Under the pieces are notes generated by a model, which did no database searches, was not told the origin of the DNA, and worked only from the letters and a program-made list of their open reading frames with translations. Position numbers and translations under genes: made by a program. Shown piece by piece: positions 11,208-21,876 of a stretch of DNA of 64,000 nt. The DNA is taken from positions 64,001-128,000 of the IMG/VR virus record IMGVR_UViG_3300031857_000028. The stretch is one strand, 5' to 3'. Source of the stretch: a virus. How positions within the stretch are numbered: the first letter of the stretch is position 1; every line of letters begins with the position of its first letter.

Positions 11208-12152
11208 TCAGGTTACATTGGAAAACATTTTAAATAAACATTGTATAGTCCATGCACCAGATCCTAATCCCGCACTATATGCTCTTAGTAATATATTATT
11301 TCCCACTCGTATGAAATTAAACGATAAATCACTTGTATCCCCCACACCAGTATTCGATACATCAGTGTATGATATACTACTTCCACTCCAAGTAGCATAT
11401 AATGCTCCGGCTCGCAATGCCCCAGTTCGTTGTGCCACATATTCAACTGATACACCACTGTGTTGAATTGAGGAGAACGGAGGATCTATGATTTCTGTTG
11501 CCGCAAATACACCAGATTTTACCGAAGATGATATTATTGTTGCAGTTGTCGGCGTATTTGTTAATACTGATAACTGTGATGTTTCGACTGTCCCTCGTAC
11601 TTTACTTGCAAATGATGCAGACTCAACAGTCCATCCTGCCGCCTGCGTGGAAGACGACACCAGTCCCGGTGGCTTATTTGTGAGAGTGTCCCACGAGCTA
11701 ACGGAACCACTAACATAAGATGCAGTTAACGCATAGGAAGCACTTACGGCATTCTGTGCATATGATGCAGATGCAATTAATGTGGGTTTATTCTGTATAT
11801 CCGTGTAGTTAACTTGCGTAGAACTGGATATAATTCCCACAGGAATATTTTGTAGTTGTGTATAATTTACTTGCGTCGAAGAGGAAATTAATCCTTCAGG
11901 TTTTCCTAATAACCCATCCCAAGAATTACTAGCACCAGATACGTAACTTGCCGTAACGGCAAAATCTGCAACTCTGTAGAATGAGTCAGCTTGTGTAGAA
12001 ACAATTGTACTCGGTAAATCTAAGTTTACCACATACGTGTCGCCTGCCGTTATAGATACTGCATATTGGTCAGGTGGTTGTAGATTTACACTTAAATTAT
12101 CTCCTGTGTCTATCACTACCAAAATATCACTAGTATCCAATGAACCTGACAT
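11208..12152 (-). CDS. Fibre/decoration protein
   Basis: 314 aa with PxGLISSSTQV repeats. C-terminal domain paralogous to that of 9082-11175. Confidence 0.7.
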   Translation of the reverse strand: MSGSLDTSDILVVIDTGDNLSVNLQPPDQYAVSITAGDTYVVNLDLPSTIVSTQADSFYRVADFAVTASYVSGASNSWDGLLGKPEGLISSSTQVNYTQLQNIPVGIISSSTQVNYTDIQNKPTLIASASYAQNAVSASYALTASYVSGSVSSWDTLTNKPPGLVSSSTQAAGWTVESASFASKVRGTVETSQLSVLTNTPTTATIISSSVKSGVFAATEIIDPPFSSIQHSGVSVEYVAQRTGALRAGALYATWSGSSISYTDVSNTGVGDTSDLSFNFIRVGNNILLRAYSAGLGSGAWTIQCLFKMFSNVT

Positions 12153-12155
12153 ATA

Positions 12156-12506
12156 TTATCTCGTTACCGCAGGTCTTACTATAATCATACCTTCTAATAT
12201 TCTCCGTGTAACGGATACCGGTGAAGTGGAAGTGGCGTATATGTCATACACATATTGCCGCTGTGTTAAGTTTATTGTGTCTGACGGTGTTAATTCTACA
12301 AAAACACTTCCAGAGGAATATGGTAGATTTTTTGAAAATGTAAATGTTGCTGCAACTTCTTCAGTAGTATAATTTTCACGTACCTGTCCGGCAAACGTGT
12401 AATTAGTAATATCAATTGGCGTGTTATTTTGATTTTGGTTTTTTAATCGAACGTGTATTTTAAACGTTTCACCTTGGCCAATTTCAAATTTTGTAGGTTC
12501 TGCCAT
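12156..12506 (-). CDS. Small virion adaptor protein (BppU/Ig-like)
   Basis: 116 aa. Pattern IGQGETF...PIDITNYTFAGQVR...YVYDI...ILEG..IVRPAVTR is common in phage structural modules. Confidence 0.6.
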   Translation of the reverse strand: MAEPTKFEIGQGETFKIHVRLKNQNQNNTPIDITNYTFAGQVRENYTTEEVAATFTFSKNLPYSSGSVFVELTPSDTINLTQRQYVYDIYATSTSPVSVTRRILEGMIIVRPAVTR

Positions 12507-12535
12507 ATTTATCTCTCAATATAAGGCCCGTCTTG

Positions 12536-12543
12536 TATAAATA
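12536..12543 (-). promoter_or_regulatory. Putative late promoter motif (sense strand TATTTATA)
   Basis: About 30 nt upstream of the ATG at 12506, just downstream of the tail-tube terminator. Confidence 0.6.
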
Positions 12544-12584
12544 TCAAATTTATAGGTAATATGATGATTTTATTAGGGTTATAA

Positions 12585-12643: not shown

Positions 12644-13132
12644 TTAGAAATTGAGTACGCAGTAATCTGGTTGGACAGTGAGCGTGAAGGACATTACTTC
12701 GTCCGTACTCCAATCCAAATCACCGAAATTTACTTCAGTAATCTGTGCTCCTTTGATAATCCATTCTTCAACCTTGTCACCGACAGGTCCAAGGATATTT
12801 AATGTTAAATCCTTCTTATAGAATTCAAGATATCCATCACGACCCGTGACAGATTCGTGGTGAAGACGCACCCACTCCATAACTGCTTGAGCACCGGAAG
12901 GTACGATTGGATCATAAAGTTCTAACTGCATTGCACCCCATGTGGTTTTGCCTTTGACGTATCGTTGAACATTGATGTGGTCAATTGGCTTTGAATCTTG
13001 CTTTATTGAAGGACGTGCAACTTTTTTCACAATGTATGAAGGAATTCCATCCACATAAAGGATGAAACGATTCTTCATCTTTGGTTCAAATGCTGTGAAA
13101 AACAGCTCTTGTTCACTTACTAGGTTTGCCAT
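12644..13132 (-). CDS. gp19: Tail tube protein (T4 gp19-like)
   Basis: 162 aa. Motifs FEPKMKNRF, GKTTW, LYDPIVPSGAQAVMEW, YKKDL, FGDLDW. Directly follows the sheath gene. Confidence 0.85.
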   Translation of the reverse strand: MANLVSEQELFFTAFEPKMKNRFILYVDGIPSYIVKKVARPSIKQDSKPIDHINVQRYVKGKTTWGAMQLELYDPIVPSGAQAVMEWVRLHHESVTGRDGYLEFYKKDLTLNILGPVGDKVEEWIIKGAQITEVNFGDLDWSTDEVMSFTLTVQPDYCVLNF

Positions 13133-13218: not shown

Positions 13219-15864
13219 TTATGCAGTTGGGAATGTTGCACCAGTTGGGAGAACATTGAAATCAAGGATAATGAATTCAGCTGTTCTTGTTGGCTGGAGA
13301 TAGAGTTGTCCGTAGAGGATATTTCTATCAATGATATCCGGTGTATTGTTGGTTTCATCCATAATTACCCGGAATGCAAACAATCCACTGCGTTCTTGTA
13401 CACTTGCCAAATATGGATTGACAATATTTAAGAAACGATTTCGTGTGGCTTCAACGTTTTGTTCGAACACAAGGTAACGTGAAACACTGGCGATATATTT
13501 CTTAACTGCAATTAATAGACGGCGAACGTTTACACGGTCAAGTGCCGAAGCACGACGTTGAAGTGTCTTCTGACCCCACACACAGATACCTTGTCCAGGG
13601 AACTGTGCAATTGGGTTGACCTTTCCTTCATACAACGTGTCTCTACTTGTTTGTGGAAGTCGTACCTTCACACCCACTGCACTTGCAATACCACCACGGT
13701 TCAAACCTGCTGGTGCAAACCATTCTGCGGCAATATTGTCATTGTATGCGTAGATTTCTGGAAGAATAACTGAAGGTGGTACCCAAATCAACTTATTGGT
13801 ATTGGTATCAATTACTCTCAACCACGGATAATAAGTTGCTGCATAGTTACTATCAATTTCTCCTGCCTTAGCAGTTGCACTTGCAATTGTTGCGTTTAAT
13901 CCAGTAGTATCCATGATATAGAAGCAATCACCGCGGTCTTCGCAGAGACTTAGTGCAGTATCAGCTACATACGAGTGGAAGTCGTAGATAACGCCGGGCA
14001 ATATCAAGAGATTGAAATCCCATTGATCTTGATTACTCAATGCTTGTAATGCTTTCTTATAAGCCTTTGAGCCCGGTGATGCTGCATTTGCAAGATTAAA
14101 TCCTTGTGAATTGGTTGGAACGATGTCACCACCCATCTTAATATCACGTGCTGGATTTAATCCATCAAATCCGCCTTGGAATGGTACCGAGAACTTACGG
14201 TATGCCAAGCTATCGTTGTCCAATGAAATTGATGCAGAGAATTGTAATGAAGAGCCACTTGGTACTTCATACAATGTCTCCAATGTAAACGATGAATTTG
14301 GAACATCTACTGTATTTTCTGGGTCTGGGATTGCCCCGAGATACGATGGATTTGTTCCTTCGTTATCTGCAAAGTTCCACCCATAGTAGAAACGCTTATC
14401 AACCGATTCTGTTGTATATCCTTGCACACTTCCGTTTCTCCAACGTGATGTTACCAACGATGGACTCGTTAATTGTGTATTAAGAACCGTAACAGTCGAT
14501 TCCACTGACCCAAACCCAAACGGTAGTGCAGTTGCTGGAATTACTGCATCCGACATTTGTACATACACGTACTGTGAACGATTTGGGAAATCGCCTTGAT
14601 AGTAACGTTCTGCGGTATTTGGGTCATCGTATGGAGCGCTATCACCAATTACACGTGCAATAAATTGCGGACTATCTGGATCTAACGTGAGGTTATCATA
14701 CTGTTCTAAGACTTCAATACGTGCATCAGTATCATCATAACGACGAATTAACATGGAGAACGTTCCCCATGGATTATCTACGTCATCACTCTTCTTCATA
14801 TTTAAGAACGATGCCTTAATTTCCTTATTTGCAAAATTACCATCACTTAATGTGTGAAGTTTGAACAAATCAATCTTTGCACCAGCAATTGTCTGTGATT
14901 GAATCCATGGCGTGTGCGCATTTGCAAATCCAACGTCTGTGAAATTCAATGCTGCACTGGATGTTTCTGCGTACATCGTTACTGCTGCAGTTTGTCCTGC
15001 ACTTGTCAATTGGTAAGTTACTGTATTTAACGTTCCACTGTTACTTGAACTTACGATGAATACCACGTTCGTTGATGAAACGGCTGTATATTGAGGAAGT
15101 AAGAGTGTTCCGAAATTAATTCCAGAGCCACTGACAGTTGCTTGACTTAATTTTGTTGTGTCAATATTTGTTAATGATGCAACAGGAACTACATACTTGG
15201 TAAGACTTCCCGTAGACACTCCCGTAGGAACATCTCCAGTAGCTAATGATTGTGATGCTACAGTCAATCCTGAAACTGTTTGTCCACCCGCAGTTGCTTC
15301 TGTAACGGATTCTGGGAAGATTGCATATACAAATGAATTCTTCGTGGTTACTGGATTTGTGCCCAACAAATCGCCGAAATATGCTGTAGACGTTTCAAGG
15401 GTTGTTAGTCCACTTTGACTTACTGCCGTTCCGCCATCTGCCACGATATTAACAGAAAAACTACCACCAGTTCCCGACACTGCAATTGATTCAATTGTAT
15501 TGCCGATACTACTTGGGTGAACTACCGCAAACAATTTCTTGCCCGATGAACCCGATACATAAATTAAGCCGGGGACCGTTGTATCGTTATTGTATCCTTC
15601 CGTTCCTAATACACGAACAATAGTTGCTACGCCTGATTCACGTAAATAATTTTTTACTGTAAGCCCAGTATAGTGATTCGCGTCGGCTTCACCAAAAAGG
15701 GTAACATATTCCTGCTGACTTCTTACAATTGTTGGGATAAACGCTGGACCTTTGGGTGTCGGTCCAATAAATGCGCCCCCAATTTCACTAATACCCTGGG
15801 TTAAGAAACTTAAGTCTCTTTCCCGTGTGAAAACTCCAGGGGAAACAATTCTTTCATTTGCCAT
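13219..15864 (-). CDS. gp18: Contractile tail sheath protein (T4 gp18-like)
   Basis: 881 aa. SPGVFTRERD N-terminus. WFAPAGLNRG, VNPI, WGQKT, RVNVRRL and PTRTAEFI C-terminal motifs. Confidence 0.95.
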   Translation of the reverse strand: MANERIVSPGVFTRERDLSFLTQGISEIGGAFIGPTPKGPAFIPTIVRSQQEYVTLFGEADANHYTGLTVKNYLRESGVATIVRVLGTEGYNNDTTVPGLIYVSGSSGKKLFAVVHPSSIGNTIESIAVSGTGGSFSVNIVADGGTAVSQSGLTTLETSTAYFGDLLGTNPVTTKNSFVYAIFPESVTEATAGGQTVSGLTVASQSLATGDVPTGVSTGSLTKYVVPVASLTNIDTTKLSQATVSGSGINFGTLLLPQYTAVSSTNVVFIVSSSNSGTLNTVTYQLTSAGQTAAVTMYAETSSAALNFTDVGFANAHTPWIQSQTIAGAKIDLFKLHTLSDGNFANKEIKASFLNMKKSDDVDNPWGTFSMLIRRYDDTDARIEVLEQYDNLTLDPDSPQFIARVIGDSAPYDDPNTAERYYQGDFPNRSQYVYVQMSDAVIPATALPFGFGSVESTVTVLNTQLTSPSLVTSRWRNGSVQGYTTESVDKRFYYGWNFADNEGTNPSYLGAIPDPENTVDVPNSSFTLETLYEVPSGSSLQFSASISLDNDSLAYRKFSVPFQGGFDGLNPARDIKMGGDIVPTNSQGFNLANAASPGSKAYKKALQALSNQDQWDFNLLILPGVIYDFHSYVADTALSLCEDRGDCFYIMDTTGLNATIASATAKAGEIDSNYAATYYPWLRVIDTNTNKLIWVPPSVILPEIYAYNDNIAAEWFAPAGLNRGGIASAVGVKVRLPQTSRDTLYEGKVNPIAQFPGQGICVWGQKTLQRRASALDRVNVRRLLIAVKKYIASVSRYLVFEQNVEATRNRFLNIVNPYLASVQERSGLFAFRVIMDETNNTPDIIDRNILYGQLYLQPTRTAEFIILDFNVLPTGATFPTA

Positions 15865-15887
15865 ACGAATCCTCCTAATGGGTTATA

Positions 15888-16148
15888 TTATTCTGTTATT
15901 TCACCAGTTTCTATGTTTATTGTACCGGTTCCATAAGTTTGCTGCAGTTTTTCAAATAAAACCCTTTCTTTTTCTTGAAATTCTTCAAATGCCTTTTCCT
16001 GCGATTCCAATTGTTGATGTGCTTCGTCAATTTGACGTTCTAACATTTTTTTACTTAGGTGCAATTCACCAATGGATGTTAGGACGGTAAATAACGATTC
16101 TTTAAGATTTTGAATCTCTGCAAAATCTTCTTCAGCAATTTTTTTCAT
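15888..16148 (-). CDS. Small coiled-coil protein
   Basis: 86 aa, heptad pattern, SD GAGG, motif variant upstream. Confidence 0.65.
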   Translation of the reverse strand: MKKIAEEDFAEIQNLKESLFTVLTSIGELHLSKKMLERQIDEAHQQLESQEKAFEEFQEKERVLFEKLQQTYGTGTINIETGEITE

Positions 16149-16206
16149 ATAAACCTCTTTTTAAAGTAGTATACATATCATAAATATATAAAAAATATTC
16201 AAAACA

Positions 16207-17001
16207 TCACTTATTATTTGAGCTTACCAAAGATTCCGTGTCGAATACCACTTTTTTGGGTGAATATGCCAATCGACTTGTAAGTTGACGATTTCCGTTT
16301 TTATCCAACGCACTCTGAGGTAGTACATATGCCTTAACGTCTATAGTAAACTTACTACGGACCAATCTTGCCGCATTTGCAGGTAGATCAGTTATTTGTT
16401 CGAATTGATTAATCTTTGCTTTGAATTTAAAATTATTATCATTACCCCAGTATTCGTTACTTTCAAACGAAATATTTTCAACTACCTTATTCATTTGTTC
16501 CATAAATTCTGTCCAGATTAAACCTTCATAGGTTATATCGTAATAATCTGGAATTGATGTGACTTGATATCGTTCACTCGGTCGTACGCCATTTATTACG
16601 GCAAATCGGTCATACACGTTACGAGAATTCCAGCCCGTTTTAAACAAATATGTTTGATATTTGTTGGTTGGATTGTTTATGGCATTCTCCTTCATTCCCG
16701 TTCTACGAATCATCATAATTGGTAATTGAATCATTCCATTTGCATCACGTAATGCGCCATCAATTTGCGCACTTTTCCAACGCTCTGGATTACCATACAT
16801 TACTGGTACTTGAATTTGTTTTTTGTTCTGTGTTACAATTGGTTTTACTTTTGTTTGTAGGTATTTTATGATTGCCGTGTCAATTGTCTCCAAACCTATT
16901 GAAACAGGCGTACTATCTCCCTCATCAGATTTGGTATCATACCCTCTGTTTTGTCGTTGTGGGAGTATTATATTATTTCTATTAAAATTAGGAGCGGTCA
17001 T
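16207..17001 (-). CDS. Tail completion/sheath terminator protein (T4 gp15-like)
   Basis: 264 aa. VPVMYGNPERW, LPIM and PDYYDITYE motifs. Lies between neck and sheath genes. Confidence 0.65.
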   Translation of the reverse strand: MTAPNFNRNNIILPQRQNRGYDTKSDEGDSTPVSIGLETIDTAIIKYLQTKVKPIVTQNKKQIQVPVMYGNPERWKSAQIDGALRDANGMIQLPIMMIRRTGMKENAINNPTNKYQTYLFKTGWNSRNVYDRFAVINGVRPSERYQVTSIPDYYDITYEGLIWTEFMEQMNKVVENISFESNEYWGNDNNFKFKAKINQFEQITDLPANAARLVRSKFTIDVKAYVLPQSALDKNGNRQLTSRLAYSPKKVVFDTESLVSSNNK

Positions 17002-17459
17002 ATGTGTGTTTCCTCAATATTAAACTCGGTTTTGCGAGTCAAGTGACATTCACACAATACAGTTTGATTATATTCGGGTCTAGATGCAATCAATTGCGCT
17101 TCATTTACGTTATTTATACCATAAAAATTATTATTATATTTTATAACGTCACCCACTTCTGGGTACACATCAACGTCGGCTAACAATTTTTTTACAAATC
17201 TAAATTCTACATCGGCCTGTTTTATGTTGTATCCAAAACCATCTTCGGTTTCTGCCGTTTTTTTCGGATACTTGATTAATGCATTTAAACTAATTCCTTT
17301 GTACGTTGGTTTTTCCGATGACTCTCCGTAAATATTTACTTTAACGATGTCATTGATAATTTTGTATAAAATGACTTCAACGTCAATCAAGTCAACGATA
17401 ATTTCCCTATTTATATGTTGAAAAAAGTCAAAGTCTCTCGTAGAAACAAAAATTGGCAT
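16998..17459 (-). CDS. Neck/head-closure protein (gp14-like)
   Basis: 153 aa. NIYGES and YPEVGDVI motifs, plus synteny. Confidence 0.6.
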   Translation of the reverse strand: MPIFVSTRDFDFFQHINREIIVDLIDVEVILYKIINDIVKVNIYGESSEKPTYKGISLNALIKYPKKTAETEDGFGYNIKQADVEFRFVKKLLADVDVYPEVGDVIKYNNNFYGINNVNEAQLIASRPEYNQTVLCECHLTRKTEFNIEETHI

Positions 17460-17469
17460 AAACTATCTC

Positions 17470-18636
17470 TTATAAGATGTATATTGGAACAGGAACGTGT
17501 TGGAATATCTTATTCATTGACTCTACGCTTTCTAATTGCTTTTTCAACTGCATTTGATATCCCGTCTGTTCTAATGTTTCACGGATTTCATCGATTAACA
17601 ACTTTTTTTCTTGTTCGGCTTCACGGCGCAGAGTTTCTCCATCCAGACGAATTTGAGCTTCTGGGATTGGGATGTGTTCGTATTTTGACCGAATAAGTCC
17701 CAACAATTCTTTTGCTAATGCCAATGTGTAACGATAAATCCACAAACGTCCCATCTGATTAATGTTTCCATACTGAATATTATCATACGGGATATTTGAA
17801 AAGTCGGATACTACACTATTTTCTGAGCCCGACTGTAATACTCCTGCTCCAGACATTTTATCGTCCACCACCATATAATCAAACCAGACGATTGTATCTT
17901 TCGTAAAGATTGGCGAAAATCTAACGATATTGTTTGCTATACTAAAACTATACTGACTCTTACGAATCATATCGTTGATTTCAATTGCTTGAATACGAAG
18001 AAGGTCTTCGTATGCTGGCATCATTACGAAGGTTACCGGTGGTGAGTACCCATCAAATCCAAATTCACTCATAAGATTGGTTAACCCAAGACCCGTTGTT
18101 GCAAATGGGTCATAGTACCGAGCAATCGCAGGTGGCATATTATGATATATTTTTCTGATTTCAATTGTCTTTCCACTTTCACTTACATCTGCCCACAATG
18201 TTTTTAAATCATATGCCTGTTGATAGGCAGTTGCTTTAATATATCCTTTTTTCATAGAAACGTTTCCACCACTCTCAGCTTCTGTACCATAGTGTGCCGA
18301 CAATTTTACAAGTTGTGGAAGTGGACTACTTACAATATTACGTTGTGTTATATTTTGAGAGGTACTCATTCCTTGTACTGCCAGCATATATTCACGTGCA
18401 TTAAACTGATTCACTTGATTACTATATGTGGTAATGGCTTCTTCAAAACAAGCGTAAATTTGTTTATGTGTAAGTTCTACGTCAACCACAGGATATCCCA
18501 ATCTACGTGCCACAAATGTGGCCAATTGTGGTCCTTCCGTTTGGAATTCTACATCGTTATCATAAAATCCAAATGGTGTGAGATTATACGGATTTACTGG
18601 GTTTTCTTCAAAAACAATCGGTTCACGGTTTTGCAT
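17470..18636 (-). CDS. Neck/head-tail adaptor protein (gp13-like)
   Basis: 388 aa. RRLGYPVVDVEL and YTLALAKELLGLIRSKY...LDGETL motifs. Follows the capsid gene. Confidence 0.75.
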   Translation of the reverse strand: MQNREPIVFEENPVNPYNLTPFGFYDNDVEFQTEGPQLATFVARRLGYPVVDVELTHKQIYACFEEAITTYSNQVNQFNAREYMLAVQGMSTSQNITQRNIVSSPLPQLVKLSAHYGTEAESGGNVSMKKGYIKATAYQQAYDLKTLWADVSESGKTIEIRKIYHNMPPAIARYYDPFATTGLGLTNLMSEFGFDGYSPPVTFVMMPAYEDLLRIQAIEINDMIRKSQYSFSIANNIVRFSPIFTKDTIVWFDYMVVDDKMSGAGVLQSGSENSVVSDFSNIPYDNIQYGNINQMGRLWIYRYTLALAKELLGLIRSKYEHIPIPEAQIRLDGETLRREAEQEKKLLIDEIRETLEQTGYQMQLKKQLESVESMNKIFQHVPVPIYIL

Positions 18637-18659
18637 AAAAGCCCTCTATTAGAGACATA

Positions 18660-18667
18660 TATAAATA
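18660..18667 (-). promoter_or_regulatory. Putative late promoter motif (sense strand TATTTATA)
   Basis: About 24 nt upstream of the ATG at 18636, after the capsid terminator. Confidence 0.6.
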
Positions 18668-18683
18668 TCAAATTATTTACTAT

Positions 18684-18714
18684 AAAAATAAAAAGGGTGA
18701 CCCGAAGGTCACCC
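18684..18714 (-). terminator. Intrinsic terminator after the major capsid gene, with a cUUCGg tetraloop
   Basis: Minus strand GGGTGACC-TTCG-GGTCACCC-TTTTTATTTTT. Confidence 0.9.
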
Positions 18715-18745
18715 AATTTATTTTTTACGTTACGAAAAAATCGTA

Positions 18746-20356
18746 TTAGACGAGTGCAAGCTTGTCGATGTAGATCTTTGCGAAGAATTCCGGACGGACA
18801 ATCTTCTTGGCATAACGTGTCATCACGCCACGGCGTGGTGTGAAGTTTGCTGGGTCGTACACAAGTGGTGTCATGATTAATGGAATGTATGGGGCATAGA
18901 CTGCACCAGTTTCCAAGAACTGATTGCCACGGAAGCCCATGAGCATTACGTTTTCCGTCATGTATGGGTTCTTGTATACGGTGAAGCGGTTCTGGAATGA
19001 ACCAATCTTCGTGATACCGGCTGCAAATTCCATCTTGTCACCATCTGTTCCGGCTGCAAAGCCAGGGATGGTTTCAAGAATTGTTGCAACTGTTGGTGAA
19101 ACAACTGCAAAGTTTGCACCACCACGCATTGTAAGTTGGTGAATACGGTTTGACACCTTTTGCATCTTCTGACCAAGTGTTTGGTACCAGGTCATGTTTG
19201 TCCATGCTGTTCCCGTGAAGGATGAAGCTTGGAAGTTTGAACCGTTCCATACTGAACCAATTTCTGCTGACCAGAAATCAACCGTTGGTGCTGCGTTGAT
19301 TAACATGTCAAGGATTTCAAGGTCAATTTCCATTGCAACATAGTCTGACAACATACTTGTCAATTCTGCTTCTGCATCAACTGAGTGGTATGCGTTCAAG
19401 TCTTGTGCAAGTTCTGGTGACCATACTGCCTTCAACTTACGTGTCTTGGCAACGATGGTTTCACTCTTGAGTTCCAAATCAATTTCTGGAATGTTGAGGT
19501 CTGTACCGTCATCCAATCCCGTACCTGCTGCCGAACCACGAATTGGGTCACGATCTTCGAAGTCACCACGAGCTGTGTCAACCGGTTGCTTACTGAATTG
19601 TACACTCGTAAGTGTCTTGCCTGACGCCACTGCCGTGTTAACGACGAATGTGATGTTTGTTCCATCATACTTGGTGAATTCAGGTAATACTAATGATGCA
19701 AAATCAACTCCTGAACCACTTGGTACGAATGAACGAATTGCCAAGTAGTCTGGGTTTGCAAATGCAGTCTTTGCAACAACGAACTTGGAAAGACTTCCAG
19801 TTGCTACGAATGCATCATTATAGTTAACATCGGCAAATGATGCAGATGCTGCTGATACTGATACCGTATTTGACGTTGCATTGTTGATGGTATAACCAAA
19901 ACGACCTGCACCATACAAACCACCCGTGTTCGTGTTACCGAATCCGCCCCATGTTGAAGCAGCTGCAGTACCATAAAGTGATTCGTTTGCTACCTGTCCG
20001 TTACGTGTACTTCCGTACTTGAAGTCCATGTAGAAAACCAACCCTGCTGGGAGGTTCATTGGTTGTACTGAAACGAAGTTCTTTGCTGCAATTGAACCGA
20101 AGACCTTACGAACTAATGGAAGTGCTACACCGGCCCATTGTTCGCCGGTTGCACCGGCTTGGTTGGTCTTACTGTTTTCTTGGAGAAGTTGTGTTGCTTG
20201 GTTTTCAAGCATCACAGCCATACCCTGCTTTTCATATCCCTTCAAGCCTTCCAAAAGGCCTGAACGTTCCCACTTACCTGCCAATTTACGGGTTTGGTCA
20301 ATCACATGCTTGTGAGCTGTTCCCGCTTCGTTAATAAAATCTTGTACATCTGACAT
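18746..20356 (-). CDS. gp23: Major capsid protein (T4 gp23-like)
   Basis: 536 aa. VQPMNLPAGLVF, AKTRKLKAVWSPELAQDLNAYH, YAPYIPL and PRRGVMTRYA motifs. SD AGGAGA. Confidence 0.97.
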   Translation of the reverse strand: MSDVQDFINEAGTAHKHVIDQTRKLAGKWERSGLLEGLKGYEKQGMAVMLENQATQLLQENSKTNQAGATGEQWAGVALPLVRKVFGSIAAKNFVSVQPMNLPAGLVFYMDFKYGSTRNGQVANESLYGTAAASTWGGFGNTNTGGLYGAGRFGYTINNATSNTVSVSAASASFADVNYNDAFVATGSLSKFVVAKTAFANPDYLAIRSFVPSGSGVDFASLVLPEFTKYDGTNITFVVNTAVASGKTLTSVQFSKQPVDTARGDFEDRDPIRGSAAGTGLDDGTDLNIPEIDLELKSETIVAKTRKLKAVWSPELAQDLNAYHSVDAEAELTSMLSDYVAMEIDLEILDMLINAAPTVDFWSAEIGSVWNGSNFQASSFTGTAWTNMTWYQTLGQKMQKVSNRIHQLTMRGGANFAVVSPTVATILETIPGFAAGTDGDKMEFAAGITKIGSFQNRFTVYKNPYMTENVMLMGFRGNQFLETGAVYAPYIPLIMTPLVYDPANFTPRRGVMTRYAKKIVRPEFFAKIYIDKLALV

Positions 20357-21660: not shown

Positions 21661-21876
21661 TCAATTATCGTAATGTTTTTGTCGTGCGGCTCTACGTTCT
21701 TCACGTTTTCTACGACGAAGTGCCTCTTGACTCTTAAATTTTTTCTTTTTTGATGGTTTTAAGAAATGTTCTCTGTTTTTTAACTCCTGCATAATTTCAG
21801 ATTTCTTAACCATCTTGGTGAATTGTTTTAATGCTTTATTCAATTCATCCTTGCCATCGTTAACTTTAATAAACAT
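21661..21876 (-). CDS. rpsU: Phage-encoded ribosomal protein bS21
   Basis: 71 aa, basic. ALKQFTKMVKKSEIMQELKNREHFLKPSKKKK matches the bS21 signature ALxxFK...RxxFxKPS. Confidence 0.9.
   Translation of the reverse strand: MFIKVNDGKDELNKALKQFTKMVKKSEIMQELKNREHFLKPSKKKKFKSQEALRRRKREERRAARQKHYDN

Follow-up and report, generated by a model that had tools for sequence, protein, structure and literature searches.

Genes of the locus and the shared domain

The window analyzed here is the stretch of 64,000 nucleotides at positions 64,001 to 128,000 of the IMG/VR virus record IMGVR_UViG_3300031857_000028; the whole record is 145.7 kb long and is estimated to be 76% complete. A T4-type late operon occupies the minus strand of the examined region and includes the gene of a gp18-like tail sheath protein of 881 amino acids (aa) (P0001, positions 13219-15864) and the gene of a gp23-like major capsid protein of 536 aa (P0002, positions 18746-20356). 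These two proteins, otherwise unrelated, have one part in common. In the capsid protein it is a globular domain of the insertion slot (M-domain, aa 158-263, positions 19568-19885, minus strand), the donor of the sheath copy, delimited by a gap in the alignment with T4 gp23, by the predicted local distance difference test (pLDDT) values of the model and by comparison with 121 homologues. In the sheath protein it is a capsid-derived insert (S-domain, aa 193-291, positions 14992-15288, minus strand), recognized from an indel, from a profile match, from pLDDT and from a proportion of nonsynonymous differences (pN) lower than that of synonymous differences (pS).

The initial annotation of the window had reported a similarity of about 70 aa between the two proteins; both peptides were found in place, and the identities of both genes were upheld by Pfam. 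The capsid protein matches PF07068 (Gp23) with 249 bits at a cut-off of 24.4 (E-value 1e-73) and shows the A domain of the HK97-type fold, which dominated the structure searches with the whole model. The sheath protein matches PF04984 (Phage_sheath_1; 3.5e-13, 50.2 bits) and PF17482 (Phage_sheath_1C; 1.7e-09, 38.1 bits), both above the cut-off, as well as phrog_23 (3.5e-73). Its C-terminal core matches T4 gp18 in PDB at 1e-39, and the top Foldseek hits for its model are the sheath structures of T4 and KP1.

A megablast search of the 7-kb region against 50,697 phage records gave no match. At the protein level, the nearest named phages are Flavobacterium phage immuto (capsid protein 53% identical), Microcystis phage Mel-JY01 (capsid protein 48%, sheath 46% identical), an uncultured 484-kb phage and, more distantly, Rhodothermus phage RM378. 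The host clade of the domain consists of uncultured T4-like phages known from metagenomes, and its nearest cultured relatives are immuto and Mel-JY01.

Homology of the capsid and sheath segments

The core segment of the sheath insert (aa 216-284, positions 15013-15219, minus strand) was aligned by BLASTP with aa 184-254 of the capsid protein (positions 19595-19807, minus strand) with 26 identities in 71 positions (37%), a single two-residue gap and an E-value of 9e-11. The Smith–Waterman score of the pair is 129, while 3000 shuffles of the capsid segment gave a mean of 29.0, a standard deviation of 5.5 and a maximum of 62 (z 18), so that the alignment passed the shuffle check proposed in the initial annotation without a single shuffle reaching its score. 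Profile–profile comparison of 12 sheath inserts with 121 capsid proteins by hhalign gave a probability of 99.3% and an E-value of 7.7e-21 over 99 columns, spanning aa 193-291 of the sheath and aa 158-263 of the capsid protein; from this range, the shared piece comprises ~99 aa rather than 70. Only two copies of the domain are present, both in the window and in the whole record. Judged from these sequence comparisons, the two segments are genuinely homologous, although the proteins that contain them are otherwise unrelated.

The capsid domain and its family

T4 gp23 aligns with the capsid protein of the window at aa 72-127 and 279-517 only; since the alignment skips the stretch between them, aa 128-278 correspond to the slot of the T4 I domain, and the placement of the capsid segment in the insertion region of gp23-like proteins, made in the initial annotation, was borne out. 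The slot lies where the I domain of T4-type capsid proteins is found, between the N-terminal strand region and the P domain with its spine helix, at the E-loop-equivalent site. The AlphaFold monomer model of the capsid protein is mediocre overall (mean pLDDT 61) and contains a confident unit at aa 161-260 (block-mean pLDDT 71-90), preceded by values of 52-66 in aa 111-160 and followed by values below 50 in aa 263-289. Position and architecture suggest, by analogy with T4, that the copied piece corresponds to the globular part of an I domain minus its linkers.

The domain was found in every one of the 121 related capsid proteins, among which D203 and R208 do not vary, and in each of the 10 capsid proteins fetched together with their cognate sheaths, regardless of the state of the sheath. 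The capsid proteins of immuto and Mel-JY01 hold a divergent version at the same place, and that of LR756508 does so less clearly. Its presence in all the related capsid proteins and in more distant ones indicates that the domain is native to the capsid protein. Within this protein, the domain is the fastest-evolving part, still under purifying selection: its core (aa 184-254) is 51-75% identical among relatives, compared with 84-95% in the conserved parts.

When 1.84 billion representative proteins were searched with a profile made from both window copies, 24 of them reached the E-value threshold of 0.001. Twenty were capsid fragments, most of them with the motif RGDFE after the domain, and the other four were repeat or low-complexity proteins or a weak hit; a clear third carrier of the domain was not found among the proteins searched. 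A tblastn search with the domain against the 50,697 phage records gave no hits, and at that sensitivity it is absent from deposited named phages. In Pfam searches at E-values up to 10, the sheath segment had no hit and the capsid segment had a single one at chance level (crAss_MUZ_C, E-value 0.09); neither segment matched the immunoglobulin (Ig)-like families Big_2, I-set and FN3 by sequence. A sequence profile search of PDB and a search of the ESM Atlas yielded no family for the domain. Structure searches with the whole models yielded nothing beyond the capsid and sheath folds that were expected, and were uninformative on the fold of the domain itself.

The sheath insert and its borders

The sheath set comprised the protein of the window and its 120 closest homologues, with best local alignments 63-96% identical. 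The insert is present in 12 of these 121 sheaths, namely in the window protein and 11 homologues of ~880 aa each, and is missing from the other 109, nearly all of which have 772-806 aa. Against 108 related sheaths without it, it appears as a single clean indel of ~96 aa between the conserved motifs FPEAV...A and VT..AETSS. As the stretch matched by hhalign coincides with the indel seen against the domain-less sheaths, the whole indel is capsid-derived. Alignment with sheath homologues, suggested in the initial annotation, thus revealed a lineage-specific insertion. The sheaths of Mel-JY01 and immuto have no similarity to their own capsid proteins.

The initial annotation also described an 8-bp direct repeat, GTTTGTCC, bracketing the sheath segment. 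Both copies were located at the borders of the indel, the first at positions 14990-14997 (plus strand), at the 3' border of the insert, where it corresponds to Gly-Gln-Thr on the coding strand, and the second at positions 15278-15285 (plus strand), at the 5' border. They are 288 bp apart, and a deletion between them would take out exactly 96 codons. Among five sheath genes aligned as DNA, the repeat is present in the gene of the window only; P0003, a close relative of this gene, repeats Gly-Gln-Thr at the protein level. In the genes L016 and L010, which also bear the domain, the sequence on either border of the insert is unrelated, and two further exact 8-mer repeats occur inside the same 500 bp. 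The repeat is therefore not a conserved scar of insertion: it is absent from L016 and L010, and repeats of equal length arise nearby by chance. It could at most represent lineage-specific microhomology. Mobile insertion with target-site duplication and an intein were likewise rejected, given the lack of conserved flanking repeats and, as the insert gave no family hits, of splicing or endonuclease motifs.

Distribution of the insert among related phages

In a tree of the sheath core (770 columns), the domain-bearing genes occupy at least seven separate places. The sheaths P0019, with the domain, and P0054, without it, are 92-100% identical except for aa 121-200 (~65%) and the indel. The capsid genes of the relatives L012 and L014 are nearly identical (pN 0.001, pS 0.04), and the sheaths of the same pair are 100% identical over the C-terminal 320 aa; the insert is present in L012 only, and two other short stretches of these sheaths are just 42-48% identical. 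In the lineage of the window, the flanks up to the indel are 83-90% identical to domain-less sheaths and 53-73% identical to domain-bearing ones. Between the identity of the insert and that of the remaining gene, the correlation is weak to moderate (Spearman 0.25-0.49), and simple vertical inheritance of the sheath copy was rejected on this basis. In view of the scattered places in the tree, the near-identical pairs with and without the insert, the mismatch of the flanks and the weak correlation, the outer sheath in this clade is, as far as can be read from the genes, a mosaic of exchangeable cassettes, the capsid-derived domain among them.

Besides the insert, the middle region of the sheath has two short hypervariable cassettes, at aa 121-160 (approximately positions 15385-15504) and aa 441-480 (approximately positions 14425-14544). 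Between P0009 and P0011, they are 42-48% identical, with 100% identity over the C-terminal 320 aa.

Genes of the homing-endonuclease type (GIY-YIG, NUMOD3, DUF559) were found at varying places among the capsid, neck, sheath and tube genes of the relatives (L011:4555-5181; L013:52-723; L014:10411-11187 and 11794-12558; L015:5710-6408; L016:251-877). None is present in the corresponding stretch of the window. Homing endonucleases may provide one route to local gene conversion here.

Predicted structure of the two copies

The AlphaFold model of the sheath is confident over aa 91-570, with block-mean pLDDT of 79-90 in the insert. The models of the capsid and sheath proteins were built from separate alignments and compared by their DSSP strings rather than by three-dimensional superposition. 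The strings match element for element, with an offset of 32 residues that becomes 30 past the two-residue gap. The predicted order of elements in both copies is a strand, a short helix, a strand, a helix, a strand, a helix, a strand, a short helix, a two-residue strand and two further strands. Matching elements include strands at capsid aa 190-195 and sheath aa 222-227, short helices at 196-198 and 228-230, helices at 204-209 and 236-241, strands at 211-215 and 243-247, helices at 219-222 and 251-254, and strands at 234-239 and 266-271 and at 248-256 and 278-286, respectively. Different folds are very unlikely at 37% identity, and the two copies are very likely to fold alike. Of the structural check proposed in the initial annotation, the prediction part gave identical secondary structure in register.

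Origin of the sheath copy

In a tree built from the domain only, the 12 sheath copies form a single clade; with the outgroup capsid proteins as the root, this clade adjoins the capsid copies of the same phage clade. Distribution and domain tree, taken together, point to one duplication from capsid to sheath within the clade, the direction and single origin of which appear readable from the sequences. The initial annotation had left the direction open; the distribution speaks for a transfer from capsid to sheath and not the reverse. Concerted evolution or gene conversion between the copies was considered and rejected, as pairs of copies from the same phage are 33.7% identical and pairs from different phages 35.0%.

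The reading to which we assign a probability of about 85% is that a domain of the capsid insertion slot was duplicated once into a loop of the sheath, where it now forms an optional cassette of ~96 aa and a probable accessory surface domain. The globular domain at capsid aa 158-263 entered a loop in the variable middle region of the sheath, at aa 193-291, and the copy retained the residues of the fold core and the predicted secondary structure while losing the surface residues invariant in capsids. The cassette, now present in about one-tenth of the closest sheath genes, moves or disappears through recombination between relatives that circulate together, and purifying selection preserves it intact. 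If T4 gp18 is a guide, the copy would sit on the outside of the tail.

Several points weigh against this account. The node joining the sheath copies to the in-clade capsid copies has a support of 0.23, obtained from ~75 columns. The ratios of nonsynonymous to synonymous substitution rates (dN/dS), ~0.12-0.43 for the sheath copy, are about twice those of the rest of the gene, with the same tendency in the capsid copy, and are rough because synonymous sites are near saturation. The shared fold is predicted from the agreement of DSSP strings of full-length models. For most lineages, recombinational gain and precise loss both fit. The location outside the tail is inferred from homology with gp18 and the indel pattern, not from coordinates.

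Alternative explanations

The alternative that survives best, although unlikely, is that the sheath copy is a functionless passenger, tolerated in a permissive loop, drifting and repeatedly deleted. Its absence from ~90% of close relatives, the near-identical sheaths that work without it and the nonsynonymous change about two times faster than in the rest of the gene are consistent with such a passenger. Against it, each of the 28 pairs of sheath copies compared has a pN (0.17-0.39) far lower than its pS (0.56-0.75); the 12 clusters, which are independent and come from different samples, show neither frameshifts nor partial deletions; and the sheath copies have many conserved positions peculiar to them and a confidently predicted fold. 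From this substitution pattern, the domain is clearly maintained by purifying selection in both copies rather than decaying.

The initial annotation went on to propose that both copies display the same docking or modification site, so that one decoration protein or modifying enzyme could coat both head and tail. There is indeed a conserved core common to both types of copy (T186, S188, K191, V194, D203, S213-G214-S215, T228, F237 and V239 in capsid numbering), but these positions look like fold-core sites and turns, the latter of Gly and Ser. The charged and aromatic residues conserved among the 121 capsid proteins (R208 in 100%, E226 in 98%, F210 in 93% and K229 in 90%) are replaced in the sheath copies, which hold a conserved set of their own; the two types are 25-51% identical, and each type has a distinct signature. 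Two copies from one phage are no closer to each other than copies from different phages, and the nearly identical capsids of L012 and L014 are paired with sheaths having and lacking the domain, respectively. Because of these three observations, a common docking surface of head and tail is not favored, and the proposal, left without support, appears quite improbable.

A decoration protein is conceivable in this genome. A 378-aa protein with approximately four Big_2 Ig-like repeats is encoded outside the window (record G000:C1:2391-3527, minus strand; L020:703-1839), adjoining an exonuclease gene, and matches phrog_215, "structural protein with Ig domain", at 7e-33. Its sequence makes it a Hoc-like candidate for decorating the capsid, and as such it would agree with the docking proposal. 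No match to a Soc-like decoration protein was found here, although the control genomes gave none either.

The reverse direction, from sheath to capsid, or an independent gain by both genes from a third source, is a highly improbable origin. The weakly supported rooting of the small domain tree leaves some room for it, but every capsid protein of the clade has the segment, and it can be recognized in those of the outgroup, whereas only 12 of the 121 sheaths have it and the outgroup sheaths do not; a third source is opposed by the lack of a third carrier among the 1.84 billion representative proteins. Chance, composition or an assembly artefact has next to no probability: Ser, Thr, Gly and Val abound in both segments, but this reading is refuted by the z of 18 against composition-matched shuffles, by the profile–profile E-value of 8e-21 and by the recurrence of the domain-bearing sheath in 12 protein clusters from JGI, ENA and Logan assemblies.

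Possible role of the sheath copy

The insert is evidently not required for sheath assembly or contraction, since near-identical sheaths exist without it, and its patchy distribution indicates that a working tail does not depend on it. In sheath proteins, extra domains point outward from the tube and contraction can do without them; a part in adhesion or in bracing the tail has been suggested for them (PMC9230969). The T4 I domain forms surface protrusions, tethered by long linkers, on the neighboring subunit of the same capsomer, where it buries ~650 square angstroms and interlocks the capsomer (PMC9546572). From the outward position of the former and the contact of the latter with its neighbor, two candidate roles follow for a capsid-derived accessory domain of the sheath: the copy may brace neighboring sheath subunits, as the I domain braces its neighbors in the capsid, or it may make weak contacts with cell-surface or environmental material. 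Lateral bracing and weak surface binding seem, by these analogies, about equally likely; the neutral passenger is considered less likely because of the selection signal, and the shared decoration site least likely.

There is also a slim chance that the insert is a swappable tail module recognizing the partner of the capsid copy, be it a Hoc-like Ig protein, a glycan of the host or the environment, or another I domain. If so, head and tail of some strains would share one binding specificity, toggled by recombination.

Neighboring genes

The late operon further contains the gene of a gp13-like neck protein (positions 17470-18636, minus strand), followed by three small open reading frames (ORFs) and then by the sheath gene, and the gene of the tail tube protein (positions 12644-13132, minus strand). 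An 86-aa ORF directly upstream of the sheath gene (positions 15888-16148, minus strand) has the same place and length in 10 of 10 relatives, and no match to it was obtained in PHROG. Two genes upstream of the capsid gene lies a 71-aa gene of the ribosomal protein bS21 (PF01165; positions 21661-21876, minus strand), which has this position in every relative fetched (L007-L015) and is a conserved feature of the clade. Between the capsid and gp13-like genes, L010 carries on the opposite strand an ORF of 533 aa (L010:3491-5092, minus strand) that is absent from the window and has no Pfam hit on record.

Comparison with known systems

The finding leaves the current understanding of tail and capsid function as it is. 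Its interest lies in the source of the domain: donors of accessory domains on phage structural proteins are almost never identifiable, and here the donor is the capsid protein of the phage itself, a clear instance of a virus making further use of a structural domain of its own. The near-isogenic pairs P0019/P0054 and L012/L014 are a ready-made test of the role of an extra sheath domain, and also of the ability of a capsid I domain to fold and function away from the capsid lattice. The mosaic of the sheath bears on the diversification of virion surfaces in natural phage populations. The literature searched contained no previous description of a sheath protein with a capsid domain.

The closest counterpart of the donor is the I domain of T4 gp23 and gp24 (PDB 5VF3, 7VS5 and 1YUE), which occupies the same slot of the gp23-family capsid. 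The monomer model predicts a compact donor with a low-confidence, linker-like stretch after it and one of moderate confidence before it, which is suggestive of a domain on flexible linkers, and the donor is the most variable part of the capsid protein. The slot is ~60 aa longer than in T4, and the domain has no detectable sequence similarity to its counterpart; the comparison is one of position in the capsid protein. The T4 I domain is not known to have a copy outside gp23 and gp24.

The sheath insert resembles the accessory outer domains of other sheath proteins in lying outside the core, in being dispensable for the contractile part and in varying between relatives (PMC9230969). The accessory domains reviewed there are mostly Ig-like beta-sandwiches whose source is unknown, whereas the insert described here comes from the capsid protein of its own phage and has a predicted structure that mixes strands with short helices.

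A third likeness is to the promiscuous Ig-like domains of phages, which are also small surface domains carried by different virion proteins, exchanged horizontally and non-essential (PMC9230969; Hoc, PMC10385173). The insert differs from them in having no Ig-like Pfam match and in being limited to one phage clade, and, unlike free Ig-like end modules, the domain is integral to its donor, the capsid protein. That domains are shuffled among the virion proteins of phages and accrete in sheaths is already established; new here are an identified donor that forms an integral domain of the capsid fold itself, an event with a polarity, and natural pairs of phages with and without the domain.

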